Part shown: positions 4,567 through 53,853 of the stretch, one piece after another
Layout of the letters: each line of letters starts with the position of its first letter
How positions within the stretch are numbered: position 1 is the stretch's first letter
Origin: Candidatus Thorarchaeota archaeon
GTDB lineage: Archaea; Asgardarchaeota; Thorarchaeia; Thorarchaeales; Thorarchaeaceae
Length of the DNA stretch: 64,000 bases
Assembly (NCBI GenBank): GCA_030593165.1
Contig: JAUVHR010000001.1
Coordinates: 25,025-89,024, forward strand
Reading direction: 5' to 3'
Notes under the pieces: model-generated
Seen by the model: only the letters and a program-made list of their open reading frames with translations
What the model was told of the DNA's origin: nothing
Databases searched by the model: none
Translations under genes and position numbers: made by a program

Positions 4567-4622
4567 GTGTAATACATAATGCATTCACAACTCGGCAGAC
4601 ATAAATCTGCTCACCTTCCGGC

Positions 4623-6035: not shown

Positions 6036-6090
6036 CTTTCAGTTGTATCAATTGTATTACCATTGTATATAATCATTCAACCTGCCTGTA

Positions 6091-6393
6091 CTATTCCAAG
6101 TACTGATTAGCAAGATCGGGAAATTCTTTTGCGATAGCTTCACGGAGCTTGCGTTCCACCCACATACTCAGATTTATCATTCGTTCATTGCGAACAGCCT
6201 GCAGACAAGATCTGAGGTCAGTTGCAATTGAGAATGACACAATCGGACTCTTGCGTTCTTTATTGGGCACTGAATCACTCTGCCTAGTTTCCTTCTTGGT
6301 GGGTGTATGCCTAGCAGTAGTAGGTGAAGGTTCTACTTTCTTCTCCTCTTCCCTTGTTTCTTCTTCTTTTCGGTACTTTCCTAAGAGACTCAT
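6091..6393 (-). CDS. ribbon-helix-helix (CopG/Arc-like) small protein, translationally coupled to the upstream AAA+ gene
   Basis: The internal ATG at 6393 overlaps the TAA stop of the upstream gene (TAATG). The N-terminus is Lys/Glu-rich. The C-terminus (VSFSIATDLRSCLQAVRNERMINLSMWVERKLREAI) fits a strand-helix-helix pattern. Confidence 0.5.
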   Translation of the reverse strand: MSLLGKYRKEEETREEEKKVEPSPTTARHTPTKKETRQSDSVPNKERKSPIVSFSIATDLRSCLQAVRNERMINLSMWVERKLREAIAKEFPDLANQYLE

Positions 6394-7367
6394 TACCGCA
6401 CCTCCCTGAGTATGGTTGCATAAGCTTCGCAAACAAGTTCGGCAATTTGATTACTTACTATAGGATTCCCATTCTTTCTGAGGTTTTCAGCAGCCACTTG
6501 CTGACATCCCCGTGCCAACATTCGAATATCTCGTGGATTTCCTCTTGCTGCTGTATTGATGGCAACAATAGCCTTCTCTTCAAAGGGCTGAACCTCAAAA
6601 CTATCTGGGTCAAAACTGTCAATGCGACTCTGCGCATATGCGATTCTTCTACCAATGAATTCTCTTGCTTTCATATCATCTAGTGGTGGTACGTCAAGAG
6701 GTTCAGTTCGATCTGCTATCTGTGGAAGAAATGATAACATAGCATTCCAATACACTGCAGTCCCACTCATTACTAGTGTAATAATCGGTTCATCAAGTGC
6801 ATCAGTAAACCCTTCTCTCATTTCTTCTGTTGGCAAATCTGCAAGAAAGCGTAGCTTGTGAAATGCTGCTTCTTGGTTGTCAGCCACATCCTCAATGAAG
6901 AGTGCAGTACGACATTTCTCCTCAACATATCTTCTAAGGCTCTCTTGTGCAACAGCATCTATTATTTGAGTTGATTCCCATGACCGACGATATTTCACTC
7001 TCAGAGAGTCAGCAATTGCGGCAGCCATCTGCTTCTCGTAGAGTCCTGTCATTCCGACATACCCTGTGATGAACTTGTTACCGCGACGATCGGCCAAGGT
7101 TGGTAGGTCTCTTAATGCAAGGAGCATAAGGGTACTTTTACCTGAGCCTACAGGTCCTCTCAGAAAGATATGTCGTTCATTCGTGATTATAAGATCAACA
7201 ATACTATCGAGGAAATCCGGGTGCTCAACGTATAATCGACTATCAGGCATCTTGAACCCACGGAAGGGCGAGAAGCGACATCCGATACTTTCCTCCCACG
7301 CGCGCAACACTTCTTTACGCGTATTGAAGTGTCTTATTAGAGCACTTTCATGAATCGCAATTGTCAT
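6393..7367 (-). CDS. AAA+ ATPase, Orc1/Cdc6-like P-loop domain without an obvious winged helix
   Basis: Walker A is LRGPVGSGKST, Walker B is LFIEDV, and GNPRDIRMLARGC is sensor-2-like. Confidence 0.7.
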   Translation of the reverse strand: MTIAIHESALIRHFNTRKEVLRAWEESIGCRFSPFRGFKMPDSRLYVEHPDFLDSIVDLIITNERHIFLRGPVGSGKSTLMLLALRDLPTLADRRGNKFITGYVGMTGLYEKQMAAAIADSLRVKYRRSWESTQIIDAVAQESLRRYVEEKCRTALFIEDVADNQEAAFHKLRFLADLPTEEMREGFTDALDEPIITLVMSGTAVYWNAMLSFLPQIADRTEPLDVPPLDDMKAREFIGRRIAYAQSRIDSFDPDSFEVQPFEEKAIVAINTAARGNPRDIRMLARGCQQVAAENLRKNGNPIVSNQIAELVCEAYATILREVR

Positions 7368-7393
7368 CTGGTATACCCCACTTGCACCGATTT

Positions 7394-7434
7394 GTATTAC
7401 AAGTATTATCTGTAATCATGTATTACAAGTATTA
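7394..7434. promoter_or_regulatory. two copies of the 15-nt direct repeat gtattacaagtatta, 26 nt apart, upstream of the AAA+ gene
   Basis: Exact copies at 7394-7408 and 7420-7434, lying 27-67 nt upstream of the minus-strand start at 7367. Confidence 0.4.
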
Positions 7435-7573
7435 AAGGATTCTGAAAAAACTTGATATAAGGATTTGCTGTTACCCCAAAAAAACCCGCCAAAGACAGAA
7501 ATCTTTTTCAACAGAATGAAGAGTGAAACACCACAGTGAGTCAACCTCGGTCACCTAATCAGGAGATGGATTC

Positions 7574-7852
7574 ATGAAAACCTCAAGAATTCGACATGTA
7601 CTCAATTCCCTAATGATTCTGAGCTTTATTATCTTTGGACTACTTGCTGGAGTCATGCTCCTGCTGGATATCCCCCTCACAAGTACCACAGTATCATTAC
7701 CCTTCTCATTCCTATTTATCTCCATGATTACACTAATCTCTACTGGTAGGATTGAAGAAAGACCTCAGTTGACTGACCGGTACCTTCGTGAATGGCTTAT
7801 GATTTGTATCCTAGGTACTGCTATTAGTGCACTTTCCTTTGCCCTCGGATGA
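7574..7852 (+). CDS. small membrane protein (3 predicted TM segments)
   Basis: Hydrophobic 92-aa ORF. Confidence 0.4.
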   Translation: MKTSRIRHVLNSLMILSFIIFGLLAGVMLLLDIPLTSTTVSLPFSFLFISMITLISTGRIEERPQLTDRYLREWLMICILGTAISALSFALG

Positions 7853-7933
7853 AATATACCACAAAGATTTTTGGAAATTAGATACAAATCGCTCAAAATC
7901 TAACGAGTAACTCTATCCACGAAGTGAAAACCA

Positions 7934-8566
7934 ATGAGTAAGATCCTTCCTGGAACAAAAACAACGCGAATGGAACTTCTCCTACTAAAGAATCGGAAGA
8001 GGCTCGCTGAGAGGGGTCATAATCTTCTGAAGGAAAAGCGAGACAGTCTTATCATGGAGTTTTTCAATGCGATTGCAGAGATAAAAGAAGCTCGCCAAAC
8101 TGTGGAGGCAAATCTCAAAGAATCTTTCTCTGCCCTTACTCAGGCCAAGATGATTATGGGTCCAGCTCGAGTGATAGAGTTCGCCAACTCAAGTAAGGTT
8201 TCGGCTAATCTAGACATATCTACAAGGTCAATGATGGGTGTTCGTGTTCCTGTGTTGTCGATTAGTCAAGAAATTCCAGAGTTCCCCTATTCTCTTCCCG
8301 ATTCGAGTGCCAAGCTTGATACAATGGCAATCAAGTTTCAAGAAGCACTGAAGGCCATAGTCCAACTTGCAGAGATTGAATCTACTGTGAAACGATTAGC
8401 TTTGGAGATTGAAAGGACAAAGAGACGAGTATCAGCCCTTGAAACAGTTGTGATTCCTAGACTTGAGGCAACCACTAGATTCGTGAAACTTGCACTTGAA
8501 GAACGTGAGCGTGAAGACTTTTTCCGAATTAAGATTATCCGAGACCGTATCACTGCAGAACAATAA
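7934..8566 (+). CDS. atpD: A/V-type ATP synthase subunit D
   Basis: The N-terminus (PGTKTTRMELLLLKNRKRLAERGHNLLKEKRDSL) and coiled-coil architecture are typical of AtpD/NtpD. Confidence 0.85.
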   Translation: MSKILPGTKTTRMELLLLKNRKRLAERGHNLLKEKRDSLIMEFFNAIAEIKEARQTVEANLKESFSALTQAKMIMGPARVIEFANSSKVSANLDISTRSMMGVRVPVLSISQEIPEFPYSLPDSSAKLDTMAIKFQEALKAIVQLAEIESTVKRLALEIERTKRRVSALETVVIPRLEATTRFVKLALEEREREDFFRIKIIRDRITAEQ

Positions 8567-8956
8567 TCATGTCCGACGCAGTTTGAGAATAGCTGCAGCC
8601 AAGTCCCCATCTGATTCCTTGAGCGCCTCTGTAGCAACTTCTATGCTAACACTAGTCTGACTGGCAACTAATGCAGCATCTTCAACTGGGATTTCTATCT
8701 CGATAGGTTTAGCCACATGTTCCTTTAGAGACCCTTTGGTCCCGATGGGTCTTTCAATCTTTACTCCAGAAATTTGAAAAGACTCACCAGTAGTAGATTT
8801 GATCATTACAACCTGTGGTTCAGCAATAACCCATTCATTATCAGCAAACCGGATAATGACTTCTTTAGCACCGGAAACCTCTGTCTGTTCAATCCCCATT
8901 TTCTTCATCATACGTTTCATCTGTTTCGGTGAAGTTCCTCTGAATCCCATGATCAT
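8567..8956 (-). CDS. nac: nascent polypeptide-associated complex protein (archaeal NAC, NAC + UBA domains)
   Basis: QMKRMMKKMGI is followed by a NAC beta-barrel segment and a C-terminal UBA-like ATEALKESDGDLAAAILKL. Confidence 0.85.
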   Translation of the reverse strand: MIMGFRGTSPKQMKRMMKKMGIEQTEVSGAKEVIIRFADNEWVIAEPQVVMIKSTTGESFQISGVKIERPIGTKGSLKEHVAKPIEIEIPVEDAALVASQTSVSIEVATEALKESDGDLAAAILKLRRT

Positions 8957-9027
8957 TCCTCTTATTGAGTGTACAAGTTCATACGGCTAAAACATTGTAG
9001 TCCCTAAAATGATTTTGCTCACGACTA

Positions 9028-9873
9028 TCATTGTCCATCTAACATAATATCAAACACAAAATGTTCGACTCCTGGAGAGTATGTTTTCACTATACGGACT
9101 GTGGTCCGTTCCACATACCCATAATCCAGACATAGCGTATTAATCGTATTACGATAGTCATCTAGCCCTCTTCTTGACAAAGCTACGTGCATATGTATTA
9201 CACCACCATCCGAAGACAATGTTTCCAAAGCCTGTGGAAGATATTCAATTGTATCATGGAGATACCCCATAATCACACGATTTGCAAACTTTGACGGACG
9301 TTCAATCCGACAATCACCATGAATTGCTGAAACAGTACAATTGAGTCTGTTTAGGTGGATATTCTCAAGCAAGTAGGTATATGCCTTATGATTCAATTCG
9401 ATTGCTATCACTTTCGCATTGGAATGAAATGCAATTGGGAGGGCAAACTGCCCAACGCATGCAAACATATCAACAACAGTTTCAGTCGCATTAACAATCG
9501 AAACCATCCTAATACGTTCCGCCTTATTACCCCCAGAAAATGTAATGCAAAGTGGATCCAGCCTGAACTTCACTCCATTTTCCACATGAATAGTAGTCGT
9601 ATCCGACCTTCCCGCAACCAACCTATATTCAGGTTTACGGAATACACCCTTAGTAGGTCCTGATTTCACTGTAACAGATTGAACTCTTTGATCAAAACGC
9701 AGAATCAAGTTACCAATCAGCTCTGTGATATGACCTACGGCAGGATCGAGCTCTACTAGGGCAACATGTCCTACAAGATGAAATCCTGATGGAAGTATAA
9801 CATTATTCGGGACTTGTCCATCAAGGTGTTTTCTAAGATACTCTCTGAATCTCATTATTGTCCACAATACCAT
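9028..9873 (-). CDS. trm5: tRNA (guanine37-N1)-methyltransferase Trm5/Taw22-like (Met-10+ family)
   Basis: DMFACVGQFALPIA is the SAM-binding motif. Length and layout fit COG2520. Confidence 0.75.
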   Translation of the reverse strand: MVLWTIMRFREYLRKHLDGQVPNNVILPSGFHLVGHVALVELDPAVGHITELIGNLILRFDQRVQSVTVKSGPTKGVFRKPEYRLVAGRSDTTTIHVENGVKFRLDPLCITFSGGNKAERIRMVSIVNATETVVDMFACVGQFALPIAFHSNAKVIAIELNHKAYTYLLENIHLNRLNCTVSAIHGDCRIERPSKFANRVIMGYLHDTIEYLPQALETLSSDGGVIHMHVALSRRGLDDYRNTINTLCLDYGYVERTTVRIVKTYSPGVEHFVFDIMLDGQ

Positions 9874-9892
9874 TCATTCGGACCAATTAGAA

Positions 9893-11113
9893 TTAACCGA
9901 ACATAGCAGAGGTGAATTCATCCTTTTGTCGATTCTTCACCTTGGCAATTGCTTCTCGAAAGTCTTGTTGTGTGACACATTTTCGGCCTTCTGTAATAGC
10001 AAACATGCCTGCCTCAGTACAGATTGCTTTGACATCTGCTCCAGTCATCTCATCTGTCATCACAGCCAACTGAGCTATATCCACACCAGGACACTTACTC
10101 ATCTTTCGGGTGTGTATTTTGAATATCTGTTCTCTGCCTTCTCGCTTGGGAAATGGAAATTTGATTATACGGTCGAAGCGTCCGGGTCTTAGTAGAGCAG
10201 GATCGAGAATATCTGGTCTATTGGTTGCTGCCACGACAGCAACTTGACCACGAATGGAAAAACCATCAAGTTCGCTAAGGAGCTGCATCAATGTCCTCTG
10301 TACTTCTCTATCACCTGATGTAGCAACATCAAGTCTGTGTGAACCAACGGCGTCAAGTTCATCTATGAAAATAATTGCAGGTGCCTTGTCTTTGGCAAGC
10401 TGAAATACCTCTCGAACTAATCTAGCACCTTCACCTATAAACTTCTGAACTAGTTCTGAACCAATCACCCTGATGAAAGTGGCTGTTGTTTCTCTGGCAA
10501 CTGCTCTTGCACAAAGTGTCTTACCAGTGCCGGGCGGACCGGTCAGAAGAACGCCTCTGGGCGGATCGATACCTATTGTTTCAAACAACTCGGGCCTAGT
10601 AAGAGGTGTTTCAACAGTACCCTTGAGTTCATCAAGTTGGTCATCGAGACCACCTATGTCAGCATATGTTACATCCGGAGCATCCTCTATCTCCATAGCT
10701 CTAATCATCGGGTCAAGTGGAGATGGCAGAGCTTGAACAACAGCAAAAGAGCGTTGGTTCAAGGCAACCCTCATTCCCGGCAGGAGCTTATCTTTTGGAA
10801 CCGACGATGCTACATTGACAAAGAAGTTGGGACCAGTCGAGCTTTTCACGATTGCCTTATCATCACCAAGCATCTCAAGAACAGTCGCTGTTATGAGTGG
10901 TGGTTGTCGCAGTTTATCAAGCTCACTTCTAAGCGATTGATTCTCCTTAGCCAGTCGGCTCTTCTCTGCACGGTGCATCTGACTTTCATTCTCAAGAGCA
11001 CTAATACGTCTCTGCAGTATTCTAATACGGCGTTCCAACTCCCTTACTTGATCCATAAGATCAGTGGGGTTTTCAACACTGCCTTCGTCCTTGGCATCAG
11101 CAGTCCCTGGCAA
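9893..11113 (-). CDS. pan: proteasome-activating nucleotidase (PAN)
   Basis: N-terminal coiled coil, Walker A (GPPGTGKT), Walker B (IIFIDELD), and second region of homology ([20 protein letters not shown]). Confidence 0.9.
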
Positions 11114-11246
11114 TCAATGATACCTCACTACTCTCTCAAATACTTCAAATTTAAGGATTTCACTACTAACCTAGACTAACAACCGAATACACAACACCAC
11201 GTTTATCAATGCAAACATATCTGACTAGTCTAAAGAGGGGTTATCA

Positions 11247-11825
11247 GTGCCCAGCTGCGAACTCTGTGGTCGAAAAATGACAGGTAATGGACGCAACGTC
11301 ATCATCGAGGGTGCCTCCATGCTTGTATGTCCTCAATGTGCATCAAAATTTGGTGGAAGATCTGATAGTACTGGATCTAGACCTTCCACTCAAGCTCCAA
11401 AACAACCCTCATGGATGAGTCGTCCATCAACATCCTCTCCATCAGCACCTAGACGCTCCCAATCCGCGCGGATTAAGTCAAAACCAAGGGCTAGACCTAG
11501 TAGCCCAGCCACACTCGAAGATATGATTCTTGTTGAAGATTACGCTCGCATGATCAGAGCTGCACGTCAAAAAAAGAAGATGAGTCAAGAAGAACTAGCA
11601 CAAAAAGTTGGTGAACGTATATCTACTCTTCAAGCTATTGAATCTGGTCGACTAAAACCTACGAGAAAGACAATCAGAGGCCTTGAAAGAGAATTGGAGA
11701 TTTCGTTATTAGAACCAATCGGGACCACACCTATTAGAACCCATGGAGCACGGTCTGCGGGTGACTCCCCGACTCTTGGAGATGTTGTGAAAATCAAGAG
11801 AAAAAAACGACAGAAGGACGACTAA
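11247..11825 (+). CDS. mbf1: archaeal multiprotein-bridging factor 1 (Zn-ribbon + Cro/C1 HTH); GTG start
   Basis: CELCG..CPQC zinc ribbon, an S/P-rich linker, and an HTH (MSQEELAQKVGERISTLQAIESG). Confidence 0.8.
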   Translation: MPSCELCGRKMTGNGRNVIIEGASMLVCPQCASKFGGRSDSTGSRPSTQAPKQPSWMSRPSTSSPSAPRRSQSARIKSKPRARPSSPATLEDMILVEDYARMIRAARQKKKMSQEELAQKVGERISTLQAIESGRLKPTRKTIRGLERELEISLLEPIGTTPIRTHGARSAGDSPTLGDVVKIKRKKRQKDD

Positions 11826-14020: not shown

Positions 14021-14129
14021 GGGGCAGTAGTCTAGCCCGGCTATGATGTCTCGCTTACACCGAGAAAACGATTGGAAATCATTCCTTCGTTCTCGATGGT
14101 CGCTGGTTCGAATCCGGCCTGCCCCACCA
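14021..14129 (+). tRNA. tRNA-Val(UAC) with one ~30-nt intron 3' of the anticodon stem (non-canonical position); CCA encoded
   Basis: Acceptor is GGGGCAG/CTGCCCC. Anticodon arm is TCTCG-CTTACAC-CGAGA. T arm is GCTGG-TTCGAAT-CCGGC. The extra sequence AAACGATTGGAAATCATTCCTTCGTTCTCGA lies between the anticodon stem and the variable region. Confidence 0.75.
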
Positions 14130-17786: not shown

Positions 17787-17926
17787 GCCGCAGTGGCCTA
17801 GCCTGGTTAGGGCGCGAGACTCATAATCTTCCCAGAATCTCTGGGATACGACTGGGGTCAATAGTTTCGCCAAAATCGAGATGAGAAATCTCGAAGTCGA
17901 GGGCTCGAATCCCTCCTGCGGCACCA
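17787..17926 (+). tRNA. tRNA-Met(CAU) (elongator or Ile2-type) with a ~62-nt canonical 37/38 intron
   Basis: Acceptor is GCCGCAG/CTGCGGC. The 5' half of the anticodon arm, CGAGA-CTCATA, is followed by the intron and then A-TCTCG. T arm is GAGGG-CTCGAAT-CCCTC. Confidence 0.8.
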
Positions 17927-24477: not shown

Positions 24478-25175
24478 TATGAATCATCCCCACGGTTTCG
24501 GAGGGTGGTATGGGCAACCTTGTAGTAGTTTACTTCCCCATTCCGGTCAACAAGAGCAAAGACTAATTTCTTCCTTGCTGCAGAAGCCGCGTCCGTAATC
24601 ATATCAAGATTTGTAAGGGAAATTGGCTCACCCTCTTTCAGGATGTATACAAACTGATTTGCTGTTGCATTTCCTGGTTTTTCACCTCTTGCATATACTC
24701 GAAATCCTATCCCATGACCAAGACCTTGACGTACTGCATAACCTCTACTTCTCAAATCTCTAAAGACCAAATATCTCACCCAGAGACCTGGGTCATCTGG
24801 AAGCAAATCATTGATGATTTCCTTGGCTTCTACTTTCCTTCCCTGAACAGACTTGACGAAGATTCGCTTCCGCTCAATGAGATGCAGAATCTCGACTGGT
24901 AGCAACTCCAGTCTTCCATCATCAAGTCTAGTACCGTAGAATCCCTGCTGTGAAATCTTGTCAGTATTTTCATGACTCACATAACCGCGTCCACTTTCAA
25001 AGATGGCTTCTACTGGCTCTTCCTCTGGTTCGGATGTTTTCTCATCCAGAACGACCTCTTCTAGGTCAATATCCTGTTGAGTCTGGTCATCATCATGTTC
25101 TTCTGACAAATTCGTTTCCCTACTCTCAATAGACCCCTGTCTTTCTGTGAAAAAGTCTTCGACATCACCAAGCAC
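24477..25175 (-). CDS. endA: tRNA-splicing endonuclease family subunit with an acidic N-terminal extension; catalytic His not obvious
   Basis: RYLVFRDLRSRGYAVRQGLGHGIGFRVYARG ... ARKKLVFALVD matches the EndA C-terminal domain. The position expected for the catalytic His reads NQFVYIL. Confidence 0.7.
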   Translation of the reverse strand: MLGDVEDFFTERQGSIESRETNLSEEHDDDQTQQDIDLEEVVLDEKTSEPEEEPVEAIFESGRGYVSHENTDKISQQGFYGTRLDDGRLELLPVEILHLIERKRIFVKSVQGRKVEAKEIINDLLPDDPGLWVRYLVFRDLRSRGYAVRQGLGHGIGFRVYARGEKPGNATANQFVYILKEGEPISLTNLDMITDAASAARKKLVFALVDRNGEVNYYKVAHTTLRNRGDDS

Positions 25176-39710: not shown

Positions 39711-39775
39711 AGTGCTGCCCCCGCCGGGACTTGAACCCGGTTTCAAGAATGATATTTTCTTGCGTTGTTTGACAC
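39711..39775 (-). repeat. decayed tRNA-Asp 3' portion (copy 1, no T-loop intron)
   Basis: agtgctgcccccgccgggacttgaacccgg matches the tRNA-Asp 3' end. A degenerate anticodon stem (CAAGA..TCTTG) is still visible. There is no 5' acceptor strand. Confidence 0.7.
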
Positions 39776-39838
39776 TCTTATTAATTTCCAGAGTCTTGCA
39801 TCTCACACATCATCAGATAATTGGTAACGTGATTTTGA

Positions 39839-40696
39839 ATGAAATTCGTTAGAACTGGAAAGTATAGACAAGATGCCCTCGAGCGTTCAGTCGAGATTAA
39901 TTCTCTTGAGGAAGCACGGGCGCGATTGAAGCGAATGAACTACTTACTTGGATTTGTCAGAGAACGAAATCCAGAAGTTCTTCTGGAATACGTAAACAAT
40001 CTCCTAGCCAAATATCAGGGTCTACTGGAGGATGAGCGAATGAAAGCAAATCCATTTGACCTAGACGAACTCGTATCTGAGAGTCCAAATATGACCGAGC
40101 ATTTTGAACTCGCAAGAGTTTTTCTGAACTACTTTCTACAGATACTTCAATTACCAGCTGAAACCAGCCTGGGGAAAAATAAAGTTGTTAACAGGAACTA
40201 CTTTCAATCATTTTCATATCTTAGCTATTACAATTTACTAGCTTTAACTGAAACTCTTGGCCGAACAGATGCAATTGCCCTGTACAAGAAATTCGTTACA
40301 CACTACATAATCGATAGTAGGAATCCAAATAGAGATACTTACGACAATCTCGAAACCCTTTATGCGAAGGCAATAAAACTCAAAGAGGTACCATCTGAGT
40401 GGGTAATTGTTCACGGAATGATTGGGGATGGAAAATATGCTTATCGGAACGATAACTGCCTATTGCTTGATGCTACAGAAGACCTGCCCGATTCTGAGCT
40501 AAAATACTATGTTTGTTGTTATGGAGATTTTGAAAACGCCAAGAATCATCATGACAGTATAATCCTAACAATGGAGCACACACTCGCCCAAGGGGATCCG
40601 TACTGTTCCCGTGTATATCATGACACTCGGGTTGACTGGGACTTACGGCATCCTCCGAAGAGTTTCTGGGACAGTATGAAACCTGATAATGAATAG
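39839..40696 (+). CDS. hypothetical protein (C-terminal Cys/His cluster CCYGDF..HH..H..GDPYC)
   Basis: 285-aa ORF that fills the interval between tRNA fragment copies 1 and 2. Confidence 0.5.
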   Translation: MKFVRTGKYRQDALERSVEINSLEEARARLKRMNYLLGFVRERNPEVLLEYVNNLLAKYQGLLEDERMKANPFDLDELVSESPNMTEHFELARVFLNYFLQILQLPAETSLGKNKVVNRNYFQSFSYLSYYNLLALTETLGRTDAIALYKKFVTHYIIDSRNPNRDTYDNLETLYAKAIKLKEVPSEWVIVHGMIGDGKYAYRNDNCLLLDATEDLPDSELKYYVCCYGDFENAKNHHDSIILTMEHTLAQGDPYCSRVYHDTRVDWDLRHPPKSFWDSMKPDNE

Positions 40697-40725
40697 ATGC
40701 AGAAGCTGAGTCTGGTAAGGAGAAA

Positions 40726-40770
40726 AGTGGCGCCCCCGCCGGGATTTGAACCCGGGATAGTCCAAGTATC
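40726..40770 (-). repeat. tRNA-Asp 3' fragment (copy 2, no T-loop intron)
   Basis: agtggcgcccccgccgggatttgaacccggg is the acceptor 3' strand plus an intact T arm (CCGGG-TTCAAAT-CCCGG) plus CCA and trailer. Confidence 0.8.
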
Positions 40771-40906: not shown

Positions 40907-42061
40907 ATGAGATTTCCGGGTCTTATTATTCTTACATTAATTGTAGTCATGCCTATTTCGAGCCCTATTACTGTTTCATCTATGAAAGCTGAGATGGCGA
41001 ACCCATACTTGTTGGCACAGACAGAAAACCCATCAGCCAGATTCCTACCAGGTATGGTCTATGACCCTGTAAATGAACACGTTATGTTGTTTGGAGGAGG
41101 ATATGGTGCTGCTTCGCTTGACGATACTTGGGTTCTTGATTATGAAACCAGCACTTGGACCGAGCTAGTACTATCAACCTCTCCAAACCCGCGACACTCA
41201 CATGGCATGGTCTTTGATTCGAATAATGAGGTAATCATCCTTTTCGGTGGTTACAATGGAGCATCCCCAGCTAGAGACACATGGGTCTTCAATTGCACAT
41301 CAGAAATATGGACTGAGGTGACACCTGAGATATCCCCTCCCGAAAGAATGTCTCACGCTATGGTATATGATTCAGTAAATGGAAAAGTCATTCTCTTCTC
41401 CGGATATGGTCTAGATGGTCCTGAGGTTGACGATACCTGGACCTACGATTACACAACAAATACTTGGGAGGAGATGAATCCTACAGTATCCCCCCACGCA
41501 AGATATGGGGCAGCTTGTGTCTATGATGACGTAGATGAAACTATGATCATCTTTGGAGGCAATTCTAATGGGTACTTCTCAGATACATGGAGTTACGATT
41601 ACTCAACTGACACATGGACCGAGCTATCTCCCATGACTCATCCGATACCGCTCAAATGGTCTTCTATGACATATGACTCAGTGAATCAGAAATCTATCCT
41701 CTTTGGGGGTGACATAAACTCTCCTATCGTATCCAATAAGACATGGATTTTTGATTCTGCAGTCAATGAATGGGAGGAAAGTGAAACTACAATTGCTCCA
41801 TCAAGCAGAGAGGCATGTGGATTTACTTTCGATTCTAGAAATGAAAAGGCCATTCTCTTTGGGGGAACAAAGGGAACTGGTCAACCCGGAGACCCTTTCA
41901 ATGAAACGTGGGCTTATGATTATACAACGGACTCTTGGACTAAAATAGAGCATGAAATAGGTGATATTCCTCTACCATTAGATTCACTTTTGATTCTCGG
42001 TACAATAACTTTGGGAGCCGTTGCACTCGTTATTGTATATGCTTATTTCAGGAAGAGATAG
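40907..42061 (+). CDS. secreted/membrane-anchored Kelch-repeat beta-propeller protein
   Basis: Signal-peptide-like N-terminus, about 6 repeats of ...FGG...DTW.YD...W.E..., and a C-terminal TM segment. Confidence 0.7.
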   Translation: MRFPGLIILTLIVVMPISSPITVSSMKAEMANPYLLAQTENPSARFLPGMVYDPVNEHVMLFGGGYGAASLDDTWVLDYETSTWTELVLSTSPNPRHSHGMVFDSNNEVIILFGGYNGASPARDTWVFNCTSEIWTEVTPEISPPERMSHAMVYDSVNGKVILFSGYGLDGPEVDDTWTYDYTTNTWEEMNPTVSPHARYGAACVYDDVDETMIIFGGNSNGYFSDTWSYDYSTDTWTELSPMTHPIPLKWSSMTYDSVNQKSILFGGDINSPIVSNKTWIFDSAVNEWEESETTIAPSSREACGFTFDSRNEKAILFGGTKGTGQPGDPFNETWAYDYTTDSWTKIEHEIGDIPLPLDSLLILGTITLGAVALVIVYAYFRKR

Positions 42062-42224: not shown

Positions 42225-42330
42225 GACTCTCATCATAGACTATTTACCTCTTAGAATTCAAAACAGACGCGCTAGTGGGAGAGAATCGAACAAGCACTAT
42301 GACATATCCTGTCACAATCTATAACGAAGC

Positions 42331-43083
42331 CTACCTAGACCAATTAGAATTATCAACAGCTTCATATCCACACTTCAGACATTTAGCTCTGAACTTCCCC
42401 AACTCTGCTTTTCGTATAGCCACTTCTCCAGGGTATGGAAGATTAAGCTTTGCCCATCTGGTATTCAGACATTTTCCCCTACACCAAATTTGCACCAAGT
42501 ATTCTATTGGAGTAGATGCGGCATATGCTGGCAATGACGGTAAATCAGGCCCAGATCGTACTGAAACATGTTCCATCATTCTCTCATGGTACTCAGAATC
42601 TTCTTCTTCAGCATCATATATTACATGAACAGGGTTGAAATACTCAGTCCAACTGAAGTCCACATTATCTGTCCAAGAAACAAGGAAAATTTTCTTCACT
42701 CCTCGATGCATCAGGTCCTGTATACACTCACCTCCTGCATCGAATTTCAAGGAGTCTATTGGGTAGACTATTGCGATATCAATACTACGCGGAGATGATT
42801 GCCAAGTGGTCCGTTTTATTGTGTCTGGAAAGAGAGTGAATCCCCTTTGAACACTAATCGGTTTACCAATCTTCGGATCCCTGTCTAGCCCCAATGTTTC
42901 CCCCAATATCTTCAGGTTATTTGTCCGAAAGAGAATTGTAGCTGGAGCTGGATACTTTGAAAGAACGAGTTCAAGGACAAGAGGATGCTTCATCTTTTGG
43001 TGTGTACCTGTTAGAAGCAGAGTCTGATTGGTTCCCTTGAGGAAAGAAGATATTTTTTGGATGGCTTGCAATTTAGTATTCAT
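42331..43083 (-). CDS. hypothetical protein with C-terminal Zn-ribbon
   Basis: 250-aa ORF with CRGKC...CLKCG. Confidence 0.45.
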   Translation of the reverse strand: MNTKLQAIQKISSFLKGTNQTLLLTGTHQKMKHPLVLELVLSKYPAPATILFRTNNLKILGETLGLDRDPKIGKPISVQRGFTLFPDTIKRTTWQSSPRSIDIAIVYPIDSLKFDAGGECIQDLMHRGVKKIFLVSWTDNVDFSWTEYFNPVHVIYDAEEEDSEYHERMMEHVSVRSGPDLPSLPAYAASTPIEYLVQIWCRGKCLNTRWAKLNLPYPGEVAIRKAELGKFRAKCLKCGYEAVDNSNWSR

Positions 43084-43247
43084 ATCTGTATCATCTTTCT
43101 ATGAGTAGATACCGTAATAAAATCAGACCCTAGTTTCAAGAGTGAAGTATTAGAGTCACCTAATCCTTACTTGCTTCGAGTAGCTGTCCTCAGCTGTACA
43201 AATTCGCTGCATTAGTTTGATTAGTTTTGGCATGATATCTTTGAATT

Positions 43248-43592
43248 TTGAATATTTATTGGGAGTCATACCTTGGAAAGGATATTCATTGGAGCACGTC
43301 AACCCTAGCACTCATTTTGGAAGAACTGATGGTCAAGGAGAAAGCAGCAGAACTCGGTATCTCAATAACTGAGGAAGATAACTACTATTCGATTTTGAAG
43401 AAAGTTAAGGAAAAACTGAAGGAAAAAGGTACAAGGATGAGTCGTGATTTCAAAATAGCTGACGCACATCGTAAAATAAGAAACGATGTGTTTCACGAGG
43501 GGTGGAATGCTACTGAAGAAGAAGCCTACGATATAATAGGACATGTGAGAAATTTGGTAACCTTTTTGAATCTCAAGCCAATTAAGAGATAG
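43248..43592 (+). CDS. small HEPN-like protein (Rx4H motif)
   Basis: AHRKIRNDVFHEGW matches the R-N-x-x-x-H HEPN signature in an all-helical ~110-aa protein. Confidence 0.5.
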   Translation: MNIYWESYLGKDIHWSTSTLALILEELMVKEKAAELGISITEEDNYYSILKKVKEKLKEKGTRMSRDFKIADAHRKIRNDVFHEGWNATEEEAYDIIGHVRNLVTFLNLKPIKR

Positions 43593-43606
43593 ATTACCGG
43601 ATGAAA

Positions 43607-44182
43607 TTATAGTTGAATATCAAAAACAGGAGCATTGGGTTCTTCAATTACGCCATCATGAAATATAATCCATCTACAGTCTCGCATCTCTTTGCCCAAA
43701 ACCAGATAGAATCCATACTTGTAGTGATAGGTTGTTGTCAATTGCACAAGTTTGTTAGAATCATACCTTCTTGTTTTCGGCTTATCAGTAGTCCATTTCT
43801 TTAACTCAAAACAAATGAAGTCAGATTCAGAATTTGCTTCCCTTTTGTGTACTATAATATCGACATATCTTCGTCCTTTTCCGCCAATTTTGAGAAAGTA
43901 CTTCTGATCTTGTTCGTCCCATATTATATTGCCATTTTCATCCAACACTGGATTTCCCTCGTTATCTAGCCTTTTTTTGTAGGAGCTATCATAATGACTG
44001 TCAACAAAGAAATCCTCCCCAATTATGCTTTGAAGATGATGTGCTAAACGAAAAGTAAAGCAAAGTTCATGCATCATTTTATCCTGTTTTCTTTTGAATA
44101 GTTCAGCATCAATTTTATACAGTCTAATGAGAGTGTTTCTTACTAACTCTTTTACCTCTTCTAAAGAAGAATCACGATTCAT
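43607..44182 (-). CDS. PD-(D/E)xK nuclease-fold-like protein
   Basis: RRYVDIIVHKRE ... FICFELKKW gives the D ... E-x-K arrangement. Confidence 0.5.
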   Translation of the reverse strand: MNRDSSLEEVKELVRNTLIRLYKIDAELFKRKQDKMMHELCFTFRLAHHLQSIIGEDFFVDSHYDSSYKKRLDNEGNPVLDENGNIIWDEQDQKYFLKIGGKGRRYVDIIVHKREANSESDFICFELKKWTTDKPKTRRYDSNKLVQLTTTYHYKYGFYLVLGKEMRDCRWIIFHDGVIEEPNAPVFDIQL

Positions 44183-44406
44183 ATCTTACCCTCCATACGT
44201 AACCCTTTCATGAAACGGAATAACATAGTATTAATTTCTGTTGCTTTCCCAAAAGTGACCAATGGTACAAGATAATCACTGAAGTACAAAGTCTTGCGAA
44301 TCTATCACCATAACACCACTCGAATAAGAATATCAGAACAAGAAGGAGTTTATCTGTTCACGAATTTACAGCTTATGTAGCAGCATAACGTTGGAATTGG
44401 ACTAAT

Positions 44407-45594
44407 ATGACTTCAGATGATCTAAAACGTTTCTACATGTTGTATTTCGAAAAGGGGTTTCGAATCAAAAAATTCACCGTTGACGTATCACTTGGTAGCA
44501 AATACAAAACAGTGATAGAGCTGGTCAAGGATGAGATGAGAGAAATCATCAAGTCCGATGAAGAGGACATTGCTCATACCATCCTCAGATTCAATAACAT
44601 CACTAAATCTGATGGAACCGTTGGTCTTGCTAAAATTAGGGATTCAAGAAAATACTATGATACAATCTCAGACTTCGCTGAAAACAGAGAGGACAAAATA
44701 AAGAGAGCTCTTGAAGACCTTAAAGAAGGAAAGTCCCCGTTTCAAGGAGGGTTTTGGCATGACTTTGACAAAGCATTAGTCAAGTTACTGTTTGAGAAAA
44801 CTTCGTCCAACGATTCCGACCTACTATGGTTGAAAGAGAATTACTTTCACCTTCTTGCTTTCTATCTTAATGAAGCCAAAGAGATGATGGGTAATACCAG
44901 AGATCTGCTCTTTGCAAAACACAAGGATATTCGCTCCATATCAGATGCAGCTGATAGGATACTGTCTAAAGCTTTTCTCGTCAAGAAAGAGAAGAAAAAT
45001 CCAGTCGAGCTCTATAAAGCATATCGTCCACATCTACCTGATTCTCTTGAAAGTCACTCAGAACGAGTGTCTATTCAACTAGCCTACCTTGACGATCTCA
45101 GAACAACACTAACCAAGGCTGGCTCTCAAGAAAAGAGTATCAGGATTCTTTACGTCTTGGATGTCTATCGTCGTGTCTATGAAATGACTCTCCCAATCTT
45201 GGACCTGCTACGTATTGCCATTCTCCTTCATAATGAGGAAAAAGAAATTGAATATAGTATGTCAGCTAACGATATTGTCACCATTTTAGCTGAGAATGGG
45301 TATTCTGGATTTGTAGAAGCTTTCAATCCCCAAATCAGACATTGTGAGTCCCATCTCGCAACAAGGATTAGTGAAGGCAAGGGGAAGGTGCTTCTAACAA
45401 AAAGGGAAGGTCTTCGTCGAGTAACGATTCAAGAGTATAGCTATGAGGACATAGTTAGCTACCAAAGTCGGCTGTATGACGTGGTATTTCCCGCTCTTTA
45501 CTATACTTTCGTAAAATTGGATGGATTTCTCAAACTCTTGTTATTAGATTCGTTCGAATATCAACTCCTACTGATATCTAAAATTGCTGCATGA
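44407..45594 (+). CDS. hypothetical helical protein with a second Rx4H motif (IRHCESH)
   Basis: 395-aa ORF. FNPQIRHCESHLATRI resembles Abi/HEPN-type motifs. Weak. Confidence 0.4.
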   Translation: MTSDDLKRFYMLYFEKGFRIKKFTVDVSLGSKYKTVIELVKDEMREIIKSDEEDIAHTILRFNNITKSDGTVGLAKIRDSRKYYDTISDFAENREDKIKRALEDLKEGKSPFQGGFWHDFDKALVKLLFEKTSSNDSDLLWLKENYFHLLAFYLNEAKEMMGNTRDLLFAKHKDIRSISDAADRILSKAFLVKKEKKNPVELYKAYRPHLPDSLESHSERVSIQLAYLDDLRTTLTKAGSQEKSIRILYVLDVYRRVYEMTLPILDLLRIAILLHNEEKEIEYSMSANDIVTILAENGYSGFVEAFNPQIRHCESHLATRISEGKGKVLLTKREGLRRVTIQEYSYEDIVSYQSRLYDVVFPALYYTFVKLDGFLKLLLLDSFEYQLLLISKIAA

Positions 45595-45663
45595 TATTGA
45601 TGCGGTACCACAAAGTTGCCCTTGTGGCTGTCTACTTCAATTTTTGATACAAGAATGAGAAAG

Positions 45664-45801
45664 TGGCGCCCCCGCCGGGACATTCCAAAACCACCGTAGT
45701 GGTGATTCTTCTTGAACCCGGGTCTCAAGAGTGACAGTCTTGAATGCTATTTCGGGCATCATGGGAAATCCATGATGTTGACCGGACTACACTACAGGGG
45801 C
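45664..45801 (-). tRNA. tRNA-Asp(GUC) with two 30-nt introns (D-loop and T-loop)
   Basis: The reverse complement gives acceptor GCCCCTG/CGGGGGC and the D arm GTGT-AGTCCGGTC[intron AACATCATGGATTTCCCATGATGCCCGAAA]TA-GCAT. Anticodon arm is CAAGA-CTGTCAC-TCTTG. T arm is CCGGG-TTCAAG[intron AAGAATCACCACTACGGTGGTTTTGGAATG]T-CCCGG. CCA is encoded. Confidence 0.8.
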
Positions 45802-45824: not shown

Positions 45825-45837
45825 ATTTTCTATTAAA
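45825..45837 (-). promoter_or_regulatory. TATA-like element of tRNA-Asp (TTTAATAGAAAAT on the tRNA strand)
   Basis: Lies 24-36 nt upstream of the tRNA 5' end. The same 13-mer recurs at 53487-53499, upstream of the 5' fragment. Confidence 0.55.
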
Positions 45838-51504: not shown

Positions 51505-51614
51505 AACTTTATAAGAGATTTTCCAATACAAATGTACGAGTTCAAAAGTTCCCTTCGGGACAAGAAAGGGAGTGAACTCAATTGACCAGAAACGGGTCAG
51601 AACTTTATAAGAGA
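51505..51614. promoter_or_regulatory. two copies of aactttataagaga (TATA-box-like) in the divergent intergenic region
   Basis: Exact 14-mers at 51505-51518 and 51601-51614. The second ends 9 nt before the ATG at 51624, which is too close to that ATG for a standard TATA-to-start spacing. Confidence 0.45.
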
Positions 51615-51623
51615 ATCAGGCGA

Positions 51624-53315
51624 ATGACAATGGCTCGGTCCAAGGGTGTGACAATCGCGGTCAAGGTCCCTGTTAAGTGGGAATCGATGACTGAGAGGAC
51701 TAAGCAGAGGCTTAGGCAGACCGTTGGAAGAGACACTAGAGTGATTCGTGCATTCTTAGGGATAATGGAACAGCATGAAGACGAGTTGCTAACAGGTAAG
51801 AGCAGAATAAGAATTAACGACGGTGAGCTGGACCGGCTGACCATGACTGCACTCAAGGTCAAATCAGGAGCCAGTCAGAGAACCAGTGTTCCACATGACT
51901 TCAAGGTTCGATTTCCTCGAATCTCTCAGAACGAGATGACCGAGTGTAGACAGACTGCTGTCGCACTCTATGAGAGTTATCTCAGACTGAGAAAAAAGAA
52001 GGGGCGAAGAGCTTCACGTCCTACTTCAATCAATTGTAGTCGACGGATACCACGATGGGTCTTTTCCCAGAGATTCAAGCTTGTTGAAAAGAAGACCTCT
52101 ACCTCTCGATGGTGGCTTGATATCCGCGATGCTCTTGACTCAGTGCAAGAGGGGAGATCTCATCATGACAGACTGGTGGTCCCTCTCAAGATATCACCCC
52201 ACCACCTGAACCAGATCAGACGCGGTGAAGTGAAAGCCGTACAGCTCTTCACTGATAGACAACGAAAGTGGTGGCTAACAATTGCAGTTCGAATCACTAT
52301 CAATGAATCTCCAGAGGAGCATCTTCCCGTTGCTATCCTTGGAATTGACCTTGGTATTGAGAAGGCAGCTTGCTCAACCCTTCTTACTCCTGAGAAGACA
52401 CGAGAGACCCAATACTTTGTCCAGAGGGAGAAGGTCAAGTCAATCAAGAAGTACGATAGACTTGTTGCAGCTCTGCAAAGGGAGATGCATACTCGACAGA
52501 ACAATGGACTTGCATATGATGGGGTCACTGATAAGCTCGGTCACATGCGGTCCAAGAGAGAGAATGTTGCAAGGGAGTATGACCGGGTTCTTGTTCGACA
52601 GCTCCTCAACTACATCTCAGAACTCTCCAAGAAGTACACCCTCTATGTAGCCATTGGTCGCCTGAAGAATATACGAATGCGTGCTAAGCGAGGTAACTAC
52701 CAGGGGCGAAGGTTCAGAGGAATGATACACTCATGGGCCTTTGCTAGAATAACTGACAGTCTAAAGCATGGACTGGCTCAGCTTGGTTGGAAGGTTGATG
52801 GAAAGGACCCAAGGTTCAGAGCTGTTCCTGAGGGGTGGACGTCCATCATGTGCTGGATGTGTGGGAGCAAGGGAACTCGTCCCAAGCAGAACTACTTCCA
52901 CTGCCCATCTTGTGGTCACAAGACCAATGCTGATAGAAATGGTAGTATCAATATTGCTGCGCGCATGCTCAAGCTCACAAAGTCATTGCACAATGTGAGA
53001 GGACTAGGCCTGTGGACTAGAGCTCTTCAAAAGGCTCGACGTGCGCGACCGAAAGCCCAAGGGAGAATCTCGAAGAGATTGTCAAAAGGGAAGTCTTTAC
53101 TCTCCAAGAAAGGACCAACATCAGGTTCTGGAGAGTCCGCGGCCGTTCACCATGCTCAGATGAGTCTTCTCAGTTTCAGTGATGAATCTGGGATGGGTGA
53201 TAATGACCCTGCCGTGGGAAGAACTGTGGAAACACTCACTGTCGCTGGAAGTGATGGACCAGCTAAAGCACAGGAGAAAGAGGCCAGGACTGTAGGAGGG
53301 ATCCCATCCCGATGA
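51624..53315 (+). CDS. tnpB: TnpB / IS200-IS605 OrfB-like (Cas12-related RuvC + Zn-finger) protein with a ~115-aa low-complexity C-terminal tail; the track ORF starts at TTG 51582
   Basis: RuvC-I is ILGIDLGIEKAA. Also present are HSWAFARI, TS-I-MCWMCG...CPSCG (Zn finger) and RuvC-III (NADRNGSINIAARM). The block where RuvC-II hhhEDL is expected reads YVAIGRLKNIR. Confidence 0.8.
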   Translation: MTMARSKGVTIAVKVPVKWESMTERTKQRLRQTVGRDTRVIRAFLGIMEQHEDELLTGKSRIRINDGELDRLTMTALKVKSGASQRTSVPHDFKVRFPRISQNEMTECRQTAVALYESYLRLRKKKGRRASRPTSINCSRRIPRWVFSQRFKLVEKKTSTSRWWLDIRDALDSVQEGRSHHDRLVVPLKISPHHLNQIRRGEVKAVQLFTDRQRKWWLTIAVRITINESPEEHLPVAILGIDLGIEKAACSTLLTPEKTRETQYFVQREKVKSIKKYDRLVAALQREMHTRQNNGLAYDGVTDKLGHMRSKRENVAREYDRVLVRQLLNYISELSKKYTLYVAIGRLKNIRMRAKRGNYQGRRFRGMIHSWAFARITDSLKHGLAQLGWKVDGKDPRFRAVPEGWTSIMCWMCGSKGTRPKQNYFHCPSCGHKTNADRNGSINIAARMLKLTKSLHNVRGLGLWTRALQKARRARPKAQGRISKRLSKGKSLLSKKGPTSGSGESAAVHHAQMSLLSFSDESGMGDNDPAVGRTVETLTVAGSDGPAKAQEKEARTVGGIPSR

Positions 53316-53439
53316 TGACAGACAATGCTCTTGCTAACTGTAAGTTCTTCTTGAATTTGCAGGGTGGTGACACTGGCAAGAGAGGGGCGGAACACAGAAG
53401 TTTCAAGTTGGCGTTCACTCAACTAATATGAAATTGGTC

Positions 53440-53467
53440 ATGCTAGACCGGACTACACTACAGGGGC
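53440..53467 (-). repeat. intron-less duplicate of the first 28 nt of tRNA-Asp
   Basis: The reverse complement GCCCCTGTAGTGTAGTCCGGTCTAGCAT equals exon 1 plus the start of exon 2 of the 45664-45801 gene, with the D-loop intron absent. Confidence 0.85.
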
Positions 53468-53748: not shown

Positions 53749-53853
53749 GGGCTCGTGGCGCAGACAGGTAGCGCAGCAGGCTTTTACACTTGTTCCCATG
53801 GAATAAGTAAAGAAACCTGATGGCCGCGGGTTCAAATCCCGCCGAGCCCGCCA
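53749..53853 (+). tRNA. tRNA-Lys(UUU) with a ~28-nt canonical intron
   Basis: Acceptor is GGGCTCG/CGAGCCC. D arm is GCGC-AGACAGGTA-GCGC. The anticodon arm is GCAGG-CTTTTA[intron]A-CCTGA. T arm is GCGGG-TTCAAAT-CCCGC. Confidence 0.75.

Follow-up and report, generated by a model that had tools for sequence, protein, structure and literature searches.

A replacement tRNA-Asp gene within inserted DNA of a Thorarchaeota genome, and a candidate link between its D-loop intron and a TnpB element

How does an essential tRNA gene come to lie among broken copies of itself, and why is the working gene interrupted by introns just where the copies run through? Both questions are raised by a 64,000-nt stretch of DNA (hereafter the window; positions 25,025 to 89,024 of contig JAUVHR010000001.1, GenBank assembly GCA_030593165.1) from a metagenome-assembled genome (MAG) of a Candidatus Thorarchaeota archaeon, in which a complete tRNA-Asp(GUC) gene with two introns, referred to below as the living gene, is accompanied by four partial copies of the same tRNA. 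An earlier, sequence-only reading of the window had taken the introns as a protection that the resident gene gained in place, at the recombination cores of integrative elements. We lean, with clear reservations, to a different history, in which the ancestral gene was dismembered, the living gene is a replacement lying inside the inserts, and its D-loop intron came with a 5' module associated with a TnpB element and breaks the match to the guide of that element.

The living gene and its parts are as follows (all coordinates are those of the window):

45801-45664, minus strand: living tRNA-Asp(GUC) gene, 138 nt, three exons (22, 39 and 17 nt), two 30-nt introns, CCA encoded
45801-45780, minus strand: exon 1, 22 nt
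45779-45750, minus strand: D-loop intron (intron 1), 30 nt, after linear position 22
45749-45711, minus strand: exon 2, 39 nt
45710-45681, minus strand: T-loop intron (intron 2), 30 nt, at 59/60
45680-45664, minus strand: exon 3, 17 nt, CCA included
45974-45802, minus strand: the living gene's own upstream region, with the family-wide promoter box TTTAATAGAAAA (plus-strand TTTTCTATTAAA, 45826-45837)

The D-loop intron reads AACATCATGGATTTCCCATGATGCCCGAAA, its stem being formed by CATCATGG and CCATGATG. Unspliced, the two-intron gene was missed by ARAGORN and by Rfam, at gathering and E-value thresholds alike, and it was parsed manually and with a spliced aligner. ARAGORN recognizes the joined exons (78 nt) as tRNA-Asp(GTC), with a canonical cloverleaf once both introns are removed, and these exons are 100% identical to the intron-less tRNA-Asp of five relatives (G061, G072, G074, G075 and G087). 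No other tRNA-Asp was found in the MAG, which is 88% complete, and near-complete relatives have tRNA-Asp only as genes of the same kind.

Using the spliced sequence as BLAST query, we recovered four partial copies, all on the minus strand and all colinear with the spliced tRNA:

53442-53467, minus strand: ancestral tRNA-Asp 5' end, positions 1-26, without the D-loop intron, beside the native promoter and orthologous upstream DNA
42227-42109, minus strand: displaced copy, positions 20-78, with introns at 37/38 (42206-42177) and in the T loop (42155-42126) and no D-loop intron
40756-40728, minus strand: displaced 3' fragment, positions 50-78, 28/29 match, T arm intact, just after the Kelch-repeat cassette
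39752-39717, minus strand: in-place ancestral 3' end, positions 38-74, T arm intact, adjoining DNA orthologous to the SIS-to-tRNA-Asp spacer

The 5' copy matches positions 1-28 at 28/28 (53467-53440, E 6e-11) and reads GGTC followed directly by TAGCAT. Its tRNA-derived part is 26 nt long (53442-53467), the AT at 53440-53441 being the terminus of a TnpB scaffold (GGTCAT/GGTTAT), and a 28-nt att core is ruled out for this copy by these last 2 nt. At the other end of the locus 39740-39717 equals positions 51-74 at 24/24, within a longer match to positions 38-74 at 92% identity. The displaced copy 42227-42109 is 91% identical to the living gene over the stretch common to both, and the T-loop introns of the two are likewise 91% identical; a similar fragment in G007 covers positions 18-78 and has three introns. 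All introns in the tRNA-Asp copies of the window, whether in the D loop, at 37/38 or in the T loop, measure 30 nt. In these matters the sequence-only reading described the locus well, since it had reported a 5' duplicate colinear with the spliced tRNA, two 3' duplicates (placed at 39711 and 40726) with an uninterrupted T arm, introns in the living gene at the sites where these copies are continuous, and a uniform length of 30 nt for the introns of all Asp copies.

Which of these pieces mark the original site can be told from the gene order. A HEAT-repeat gene, a SIS-domain gene, tRNA-Asp, about 550 nt that include tRNA-Lys, and rpoB follow one another at about 50 loci of the family. Beyond 53467, to the right, the sequence is orthologous to the spacer that separates tRNA-Asp from rpoB at empty sites, with the promoter box at its usual distance; beyond 39717, to the left, it is orthologous to their SIS-to-tRNA-Asp spacer. 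Because the adjoining DNA is orthologous to empty-site spacers on both sides, the original gene still has its two ends in place, at 53442-53467 and 39717-39752, and the 13.7 kb between 39752 and 53442 is inserted DNA, within which the living gene sits. Owing to this location the living gene is not the resident gene. Indeed, neither of its flanks is orthologous to the flanks of empty sites; in its upstream region the promoter box of about 20 nt is the only match to relatives, the remainder not being orthologous to the ancestral upstream DNA. Within the same genus G002 has an empty site and an intron-less gene (comparison of species-level representatives). A misassembly of the MAG is ruled out, as the same architectures recur in independent assemblies.

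What, then, broke the original gene after position 26? Its 5' end abuts a TnpB element, of which two parts have to be named:

51582-53315, plus strand: TnpB-like gene, 577 aa (Pfam Cas12f1-like_TNB PF07282, E 3e-11; PHROG transposase, E 1e-23)
52996-53441, plus strand: conserved tnpB 3' part and omega-RNA-like scaffold, ending ...GTTCACTC-N21-GGTCAT

The 577-aa protein also has a weak match to OrfB_IS605 (Pfam), and its matches agree with a TnpB that has RuvC and zinc-ribbon (TNB) domains. The unit at 52996-53441, which consists of the last 430 nt of tnpB and about 125 nt downstream, is present in about 25 copies in the MAG, all of which end in ...GTTCACTC-N(~20)-GGTTAT/GGTCAT and diverge directly after it. 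In the window this end lies at 53441, and the flank there, GCTAGACCGGACTACACTACAGGGGC, is the antisense of tRNA-Asp positions 26 to 1. In TnpB elements the right-end flank serves as the omega-RNA guide; since the 26/27 break coincides exactly with the right end of the TnpB element, the leftover of the tRNA would be the guide of this element. The same position-26 junction, with the scaffold end followed by GCTAG(G/A)CCG..CTAC, was also found in G004, G090 and Thorarchaeota Yap125.bin7.129 (hereafter Yap125), where only a mini-element is left and 15-17 nt of the tRNA fragment are kept, which is about the length of a guide, and a remnant of it is seen in G071. G007, G071 and G079 have a second junction, at which ACACTACAGGGGC (positions 13 to 1) comes after the scaffold end. 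In these three the living gene is inverted with respect to the ancestral orientation and, because of this reversal, represents cargo and not a reconstituted resident. The left flanks of the element (four full and three mini copies) showed no target-adjacent consensus.

The bulge-helix-bulge geometry was calibrated on the canonical intron of tRNA-Lys (53749-53850), in which an outer helix leads through a 3-nt bulge, a 4-bp helix and another 3-nt bulge to an inner hairpin, with the cut after the second bulge nucleotide. In the D-loop intron a helix CCGG:CCGA (3/4 paired) is accompanied by the bulges UCA and AAU and by an 8-bp hairpin, and the T-loop intron follows the T stem with bulge UGU, helix UUCA:GGAA (3/4 paired), bulge AGA and a 9-bp hairpin. 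A bulge-helix-bulge motif can thus be predicted for both introns in a relaxed form that fits the tRNA-Lys geometry, a check that the sequence-only reading had proposed; the 4-bp helices are fuller in relatives, and the predicted cut sites of both introns coincide exactly with the junctions in intron-less copies. When 10 of the 12 known D-loop intron sequences, the window's included, were aligned, 8 of the 9 hairpin pairs had changed on both sides across the 10 genomes, 92% of the cells were paired as against 31-46% with the partners slid, and the covariation score was reached by 0 of 500 shuffles. Two PF01974 tRNA-splicing endonuclease genes are present in the MAG, one on contig C47 and the other in the window (24525-24782, minus strand), which fits a two-subunit splicing endonuclease. 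Both introns of the living tRNA-Asp are, then, probably removed by splicing.

It could be objected that the two-intron gene is a decaying pseudogene, the working tRNA-Asp being located in the unassembled 12% of the genome. The incompleteness of the MAG and the failure of standard tRNA finders to report the gene would agree with this, but the exons are identical to those of functional intron-less genes, compensatory changes among relatives preserve the intron structure, the promoter box is undamaged and near-complete relatives have nothing other than this kind of gene, all of which makes a pseudogene highly improbable. Two more tRNA genes of the window (17787-17923 and 14021-14126, both on the plus strand) have long or multiple insertions; Rfam detects them and default ARAGORN does not.

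Intron configurations were parsed at 55 tRNA-Asp loci (L038-L092 and L101). The tRNA-Asp genes of the family have at least 10 configurations with 0-3 introns, nearly all of 28-33 nt, at positions 22, 37/38, ~46, 50, 53-55 and 58-60, despite exons that are 87-100% identical. Even the three species of the window's genus have three configurations, with no intron in G002, D-loop and 37/38 introns in G001, and D-loop and T-loop introns in the window. The D-loop intron is found at the same position in 12 genomes of 4 genera, that is, the window and 11 others, in which its length is 30 nt in ten and 32 nt in G095. In G090 and Yap125 the promoter, exon 1 and D-loop intron are the same and the 3' parts are different, that of G090 having no further introns and that of Yap125 having introns at 37/38 and 53/54, as in G019; because the two have the 5' module in common despite their different 3' parts, this module behaves as a unit. 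The T-loop intron occurs also in G009, G048, G068 and the G007 fragment. It is present in G009, where 3' fragments are absent, and over the family loci 3' fragments adjoin intron-less and intron-bearing genes alike. The T-loop intron is best read as one allele of a highly intron-polymorphic gene family.

These comparisons bear directly on the main idea of the sequence-only reading, namely that the resident tRNA-Asp gained its introns in place at integrase cores and thereby blocked further integration. The introns do fall inside the duplicated stretches, and the idea has been published for archaeal tRNA genes (discussed in PMC3293823). Nevertheless, the living gene lies away from the ancestral position, the D-loop intron is common to all 12 genomes with empty sites among them, the displaced copy 42227-42109 already has the T-loop intron, and the 3' fragments are indifferent to the introns of the gene they adjoin. 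Moreover, a tyrosine integrase (PF00589) was found at none of the 16 loci checked, the PF00589 matches of those 16 genomes lying elsewhere. A comparison of related tRNA-Asp genes had been suggested as a check, and it turned against the proposal, as the same introns occur without insertions (D-loop intron in G001 and G095, T-loop intron in G009). We regard protection gained in place as improbable.

A likeness between introns at different sites was also noticed. The 53/54 intron of G019 (30 nt, ACAGTCATGGATTTCTCATGGCTGCGGGAA) has 20 of 30 positions the same as the window D-loop intron AACATCATGGATTTCCCATGATGCCCGAAA, the core CATGGATTTC included (loci compared: L042 of G019, 3497-3634, and L057 of G082, 9563-9729, against window 45750-45779). 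This may reflect intron transposition between sites of one gene.

Is the D-loop intron tied to the TnpB element, or do the two merely meet at this locus? Of the 11 scorable D-intron loci 8 have the TnpB family on their 5' side, as against 1 of the 34 other loci (Fisher p = 6e-6, uncorrected for phylogeny), and any 5' insertion was observed at 8 of 10 D-intron genes as compared with 12 of 34 others (p = 0.03, uncorrected for shared ancestry). Furthermore, every position-26 junction locus combines a fragment without the intron and an adjacent living gene that has it 4 nt from the junction equivalent. One may hold that this is coincidence, the D-loop intron being an old polymorphism without a role towards TnpB, near which an element happened to insert. 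The clean D-intron alleles of G001 and G095, the wealth of intron configurations in the family and the other flanks of the TnpB family, which are not tRNAs, speak for it, and a 2026 census of Asgard tRNA introns saw no general arrival route and no mobile-element signal (preprint 10.64898/2026.10.13.758758). Coincidence sits poorly, however, with the 8/11 versus 1/34 association and with a pairing of intron-less fragment and intron-bearing gene that holds at every position-26 locus at a distance of 4 nt, and when an essential tRNA gene present in a single copy is split, a replacement has to come at the same time. We therefore consider it unlikely, though it deserves to be kept in mind.

The history to which we lean would run as follows. 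The slot between the SIS-domain gene and rpoB is the tRNA-Asp site throughout the Thorarchaeota family, and it is an insertion hot spot. Here the ancestral gene has been pulled apart, its first 26 nt staying with their promoter at 53442-53467 and its last ~37 nt at 39717-39752; the working gene lies within the insert and has its own promoter. As the cell has one tRNA-Asp(GUC) gene and cannot do without it, a replacement must have come in with the insertion, and this would comprise at least a promoter and exon 1, followed by the 30-nt bulge-helix-bulge intron and by TAGC (4 nt); if this 5' module arrived with mobile DNA, the D-loop intron arrived with it. An uninterrupted 5' part beside the left flank would recreate the exact guide-matched sequence, and the first 20 nt of the flank have a perfect match in intron-less alleles (G061, G087), whose sequence equals that of the spliced tRNA. 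The intron allele matches the guide over 4 nt (GCTA) and then diverges. At the DNA level the intron interrupts the 20-nt guide match after 4 nt, and at the RNA level the splicing endonuclease would restore the tRNA; in this manner the D-loop intron may shield the living gene from the adjacent TnpB guide. A later deletion between short direct repeats would leave a clean gene with a gained intron, as in G001 and G095.

Several points weigh against this history. The association test for the D-loop intron and TnpB ignores shared ancestry. The D-intron alleles of G001, which belongs to the same genus as the window, and of G095 stand at ancestral spacing with no insertion trace, and the D-loop intron could be an older allele beside which TnpB elements merely landed. 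At the position-13 type of junction the guide match does not reach the D-loop intron. None of the family's other right-end flanks in the MAG gave a tRNA match, and on these flanks a family generally directed to tRNAs is ruled out. The conserved left end of the tnpB unit is at ~51531, and the replacement 5' module, together with a giant gene described below, lies outside this minimal repeated unit. The displaced copy 42227-42109 and the 5' fragment have 7 nt in common (positions 20-26), which bears on the order of events. Finally, with the MAG at 88% completeness, a second tRNA-Asp gene may exist.

The scheme can be carried one step further, into a cleave-and-rescue drive. A TnpB/omega-RNA lineage would invade the single-copy tRNA-Asp gene carrying a replacement promoter and 5' exon, the intron 4 nt into the guide match would hide the restored gene whereas intron-less alleles would stay targets, and loss of the element by short-repeat recombination would leave a clean intron gain. 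This extension is tentative, and we would sooner bet against it than for it.

Some observations on the scaffold copies and their surroundings are added here. Many scaffold copies (e.g. those on contigs C32, C26, C209, C99, C274 and C38) consist of the last ~430 nt only, without an intact tnpB, and several of them have extra upstream sequence in common. Their flanks differ from copy to copy, and they have the look of independent omega-RNA modules or of mini-elements. In L039 (G001), at ~4150-4175, upstream of the clean D-intron gene, a string GATTCAAAAGACAGATCAG resembles the start of the mini-element left end, GAGTTCAAAAGAC, fused to the right-end terminus, ACAGGTCAG; it could be a deletion footprint, the string being too short to judge. 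The inverted cargo tRNA-Asp genes (L041 of G007, L056 of G071, L055 of G079 and L059 of G053) have A at linear position 17 (GTAGTACGG versus GTAGTCCGG), right beside the position-13 junction, where the target-adjacent motif of that guide would fall, and this A may be a second way to escape the guide.

On the 3' side of the living gene the inserted DNA is made up of cassettes bounded by tRNA pieces:

42228-45663: four-gene cassette (250, 114, 191 and 395 aa), separating the living gene from the 42227-42109 copy
40907-42061, plus strand: Kelch-repeat gene cassette, between the 40756-40728 and 42227-42109 copies
39839-40696, plus strand: ATC-hydrolase-like gene cassette, between the 39752-39717 and 40756-40728 fragments

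All three are plus-strand cassettes that end 31-69 nt ahead of a tRNA 3' piece. No recombinase domain was found in the four cassette proteins and the ATC-hydrolase-like protein (Pfam, PHROG and NCBIfam) or in the Kelch-repeat protein (Pfam only), the 395-aa gene beside the tRNA had no match in Pfam, PHROG, NCBIfam or PDB sequences, and PF00589 had no match in the cassette proteins, the giant protein or the TnpB of the window. The same fragment-cassette-fragment layout, with the ATC-hydrolase cassette between two flanking tRNA-Asp fragments, is present in G085, and the cassette occurs in similar form in G068, G088, G007 and G071. In the history proposed above, successive small cassettes would each have displaced the prior 3' part outwards and supplied a new one, and the 37/38 and T-loop introns would have come and gone with the exchanged 3' parts. 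The last such exchange joined intron-bearing partners, since the 42227-42109 copy already has the T-loop intron.

The cassettes also lend something to the view, raised as a second possibility by the sequence-only reading, that every fragment derives from an attP site which integrative elements had copied from intron-less tRNAs of other hosts. Under successive replacement 40756-40728 and 42227-42109 are most simply the 3' parts of earlier cassettes, and the same ATC-hydrolase cassette with its flanking fragments is present in other genera. The outermost fragments, on the other hand, adjoin orthologous chromosomal DNA and the native promoter, the boundary of the 5' fragment is the right end of TnpB and not an att site, and one of the supplied parts has two introns. 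As an account of all the fragments it is quite unlikely. In deriving the fragments from other, intron-less alleles it comes closer to the locus than in-place protection does; the attP origin fails for the outermost fragments, which are the ancestral gene's own ends.

With respect to its distribution, the ATC-hydrolase-like cassette protein is 65-75% identical at the same place in other genera (window 39717-40756; L076 of G085, 7626-8639; L080 of G068, 10749-11668) and is more conserved than the neighbouring SIS gene (~50% identical). The arrangement is reminiscent of an integron-like array of cassettes at a tRNA gene, with no recombinase in sight.

Between the living gene and tnpB lies one further gene:

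51380-45975, minus strand: giant protein, 1801 aa, head-to-head with tnpB

The giant/TnpB pairing recurs at three more loci of the MAG (C214, C292 and C330) and at the tRNA-Asp locus of G007, G071, G079 and G050; neither tRNAs nor flank repeats were found at the C214 and C330 loci. At C96 the giant's neighbour was not detected as a TnpB homologue, and a 1192-aa protein beside the G053 gene was ruled out by comparison as a giant homologue. In L068 (G050; 3945-9987) a more distant giant/TnpB pair (TnpB 41% identical) lies between rpoB and an intact intron-less tRNA-Asp, with tnpB reading towards the tRNA gene, opposite to the arrangement in the window. On contig C96 (200-800) a reading frame that lies downstream of a 36%-identical giant homologue, past its 3' end, resembles, by eye, an IS607-type serine recombinase (MerR-like N-terminus, resolvase-like core). 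If it is so identified, giant/TnpB pairs may be part of IS607-like elements.

What does this locus tell beyond itself? The locus family forms a natural series of states, from empty and intron-less, through the full element and the mini-element (scaffold and guide-length fragment), to clean with the intron, and this series ties one specific intron to one mobile-element family. The idea that introns protect tRNA genes thereby becomes biochemically testable, as TnpB cutting of intron-less versus intron-bearing alleles. If the proposed history is true, RNA-guided transposons would be one route by which Asgard tRNA genes gain non-canonical introns. The locus also shows that what look like att repeats beside a tRNA gene can in fact be the two ends of the gene that first stood there, and that the gene now at work can have come from elsewhere.

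Among known systems, the tRNA-Thr(GGU) gene of Caldiarchaeum subterraneum has a 1.87-kb multi-copy insertion that left an intron-less 5' fragment of positions 1-27, and the working gene behind it has a new D-arm intron at 24/25, a few nt from the junction (PMC3293823); Sugahara et al. 2012 suggested an intron delivered by a mobile element, perhaps shielding the gene from further invasion (PMC3293823). The window, G004, G090 and Yap125 repeat the order of an intron-less 5' fragment, a multi-copy insertion and then an intron a few nt from the junction. Unlike the Caldiarchaeum insertion, which was read as a pNOB8-type integrase element, the window fragment abuts the right end of a TnpB/omega-RNA element, at the guide position, and the pattern recurs in several genera, with two junctions and with mini-versions in which the scaffold and a 15-17-nt fragment remain. 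As in SSV- and pNOB8-type integration, the cassettes lie between direct repeats of tRNA 3' parts, with a complete gene kept at one border. Unlike such integration, the 16 loci checked have no integrase, the cassettes are of 1-3.4 kb, the repeats vary (positions 20-78, 38-74 and 50-78) with introns in one of them, and no ancestral flank lies beside the living gene, as it would in an att duplication of the integrase type.

The IS200/IS605 and IS607 elements with TnpB and omega-RNA, and their RNA-guided homing and retention, are summarised in PMC12558985. The window element agrees with them in a tnpB with a conserved 3' scaffold, a sharp right end, a flank as guide and many copies per genome; it differs in that the target is an essential tRNA gene and that a functional intron-bearing copy stands beside the element, and no TnpA was found at the window locus. 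RNA-guided homing and retention of TnpB-omega-RNA elements was reportedly described by Karvelis 2021, Altae-Tran 2021 and Meers 2023, and IStrons, which combine a group I intron with TnpB, are said to have been treated by Zedaveinyte et al. 2024. As in IStrons, a TnpB transposon would rely on RNA splicing to keep an interrupted host gene working. Unlike IStrons, in which the whole element is self-splicing, only a 30-nt, protein-spliced bulge-helix-bulge intron would be removed here, and a second copy of the 5' exon and promoter bypasses the window element.

For the multiple non-canonical introns in tRNAs of Thermoproteales and Asgard archaea the preprint 10.64898/2026.10.13.758758 cites Sugahara 2008 and Fujishima 2010. 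The introns of the window resemble these in their length of ~30 nt, their bulge-helix-bulge form, their presence in D and T arms, their rapid gain and loss, and the fact that D-arm introns are missed by annotators. The difference is that the window locus gives a concrete candidate for the arrival route, which the preprint (10.64898/2026.10.13.758758) reports as open. Set beside the Caldiarchaeum precedent and TnpB homing, the locus is one at which the arrival of at least one Asgard tRNA intron can be tested directly.

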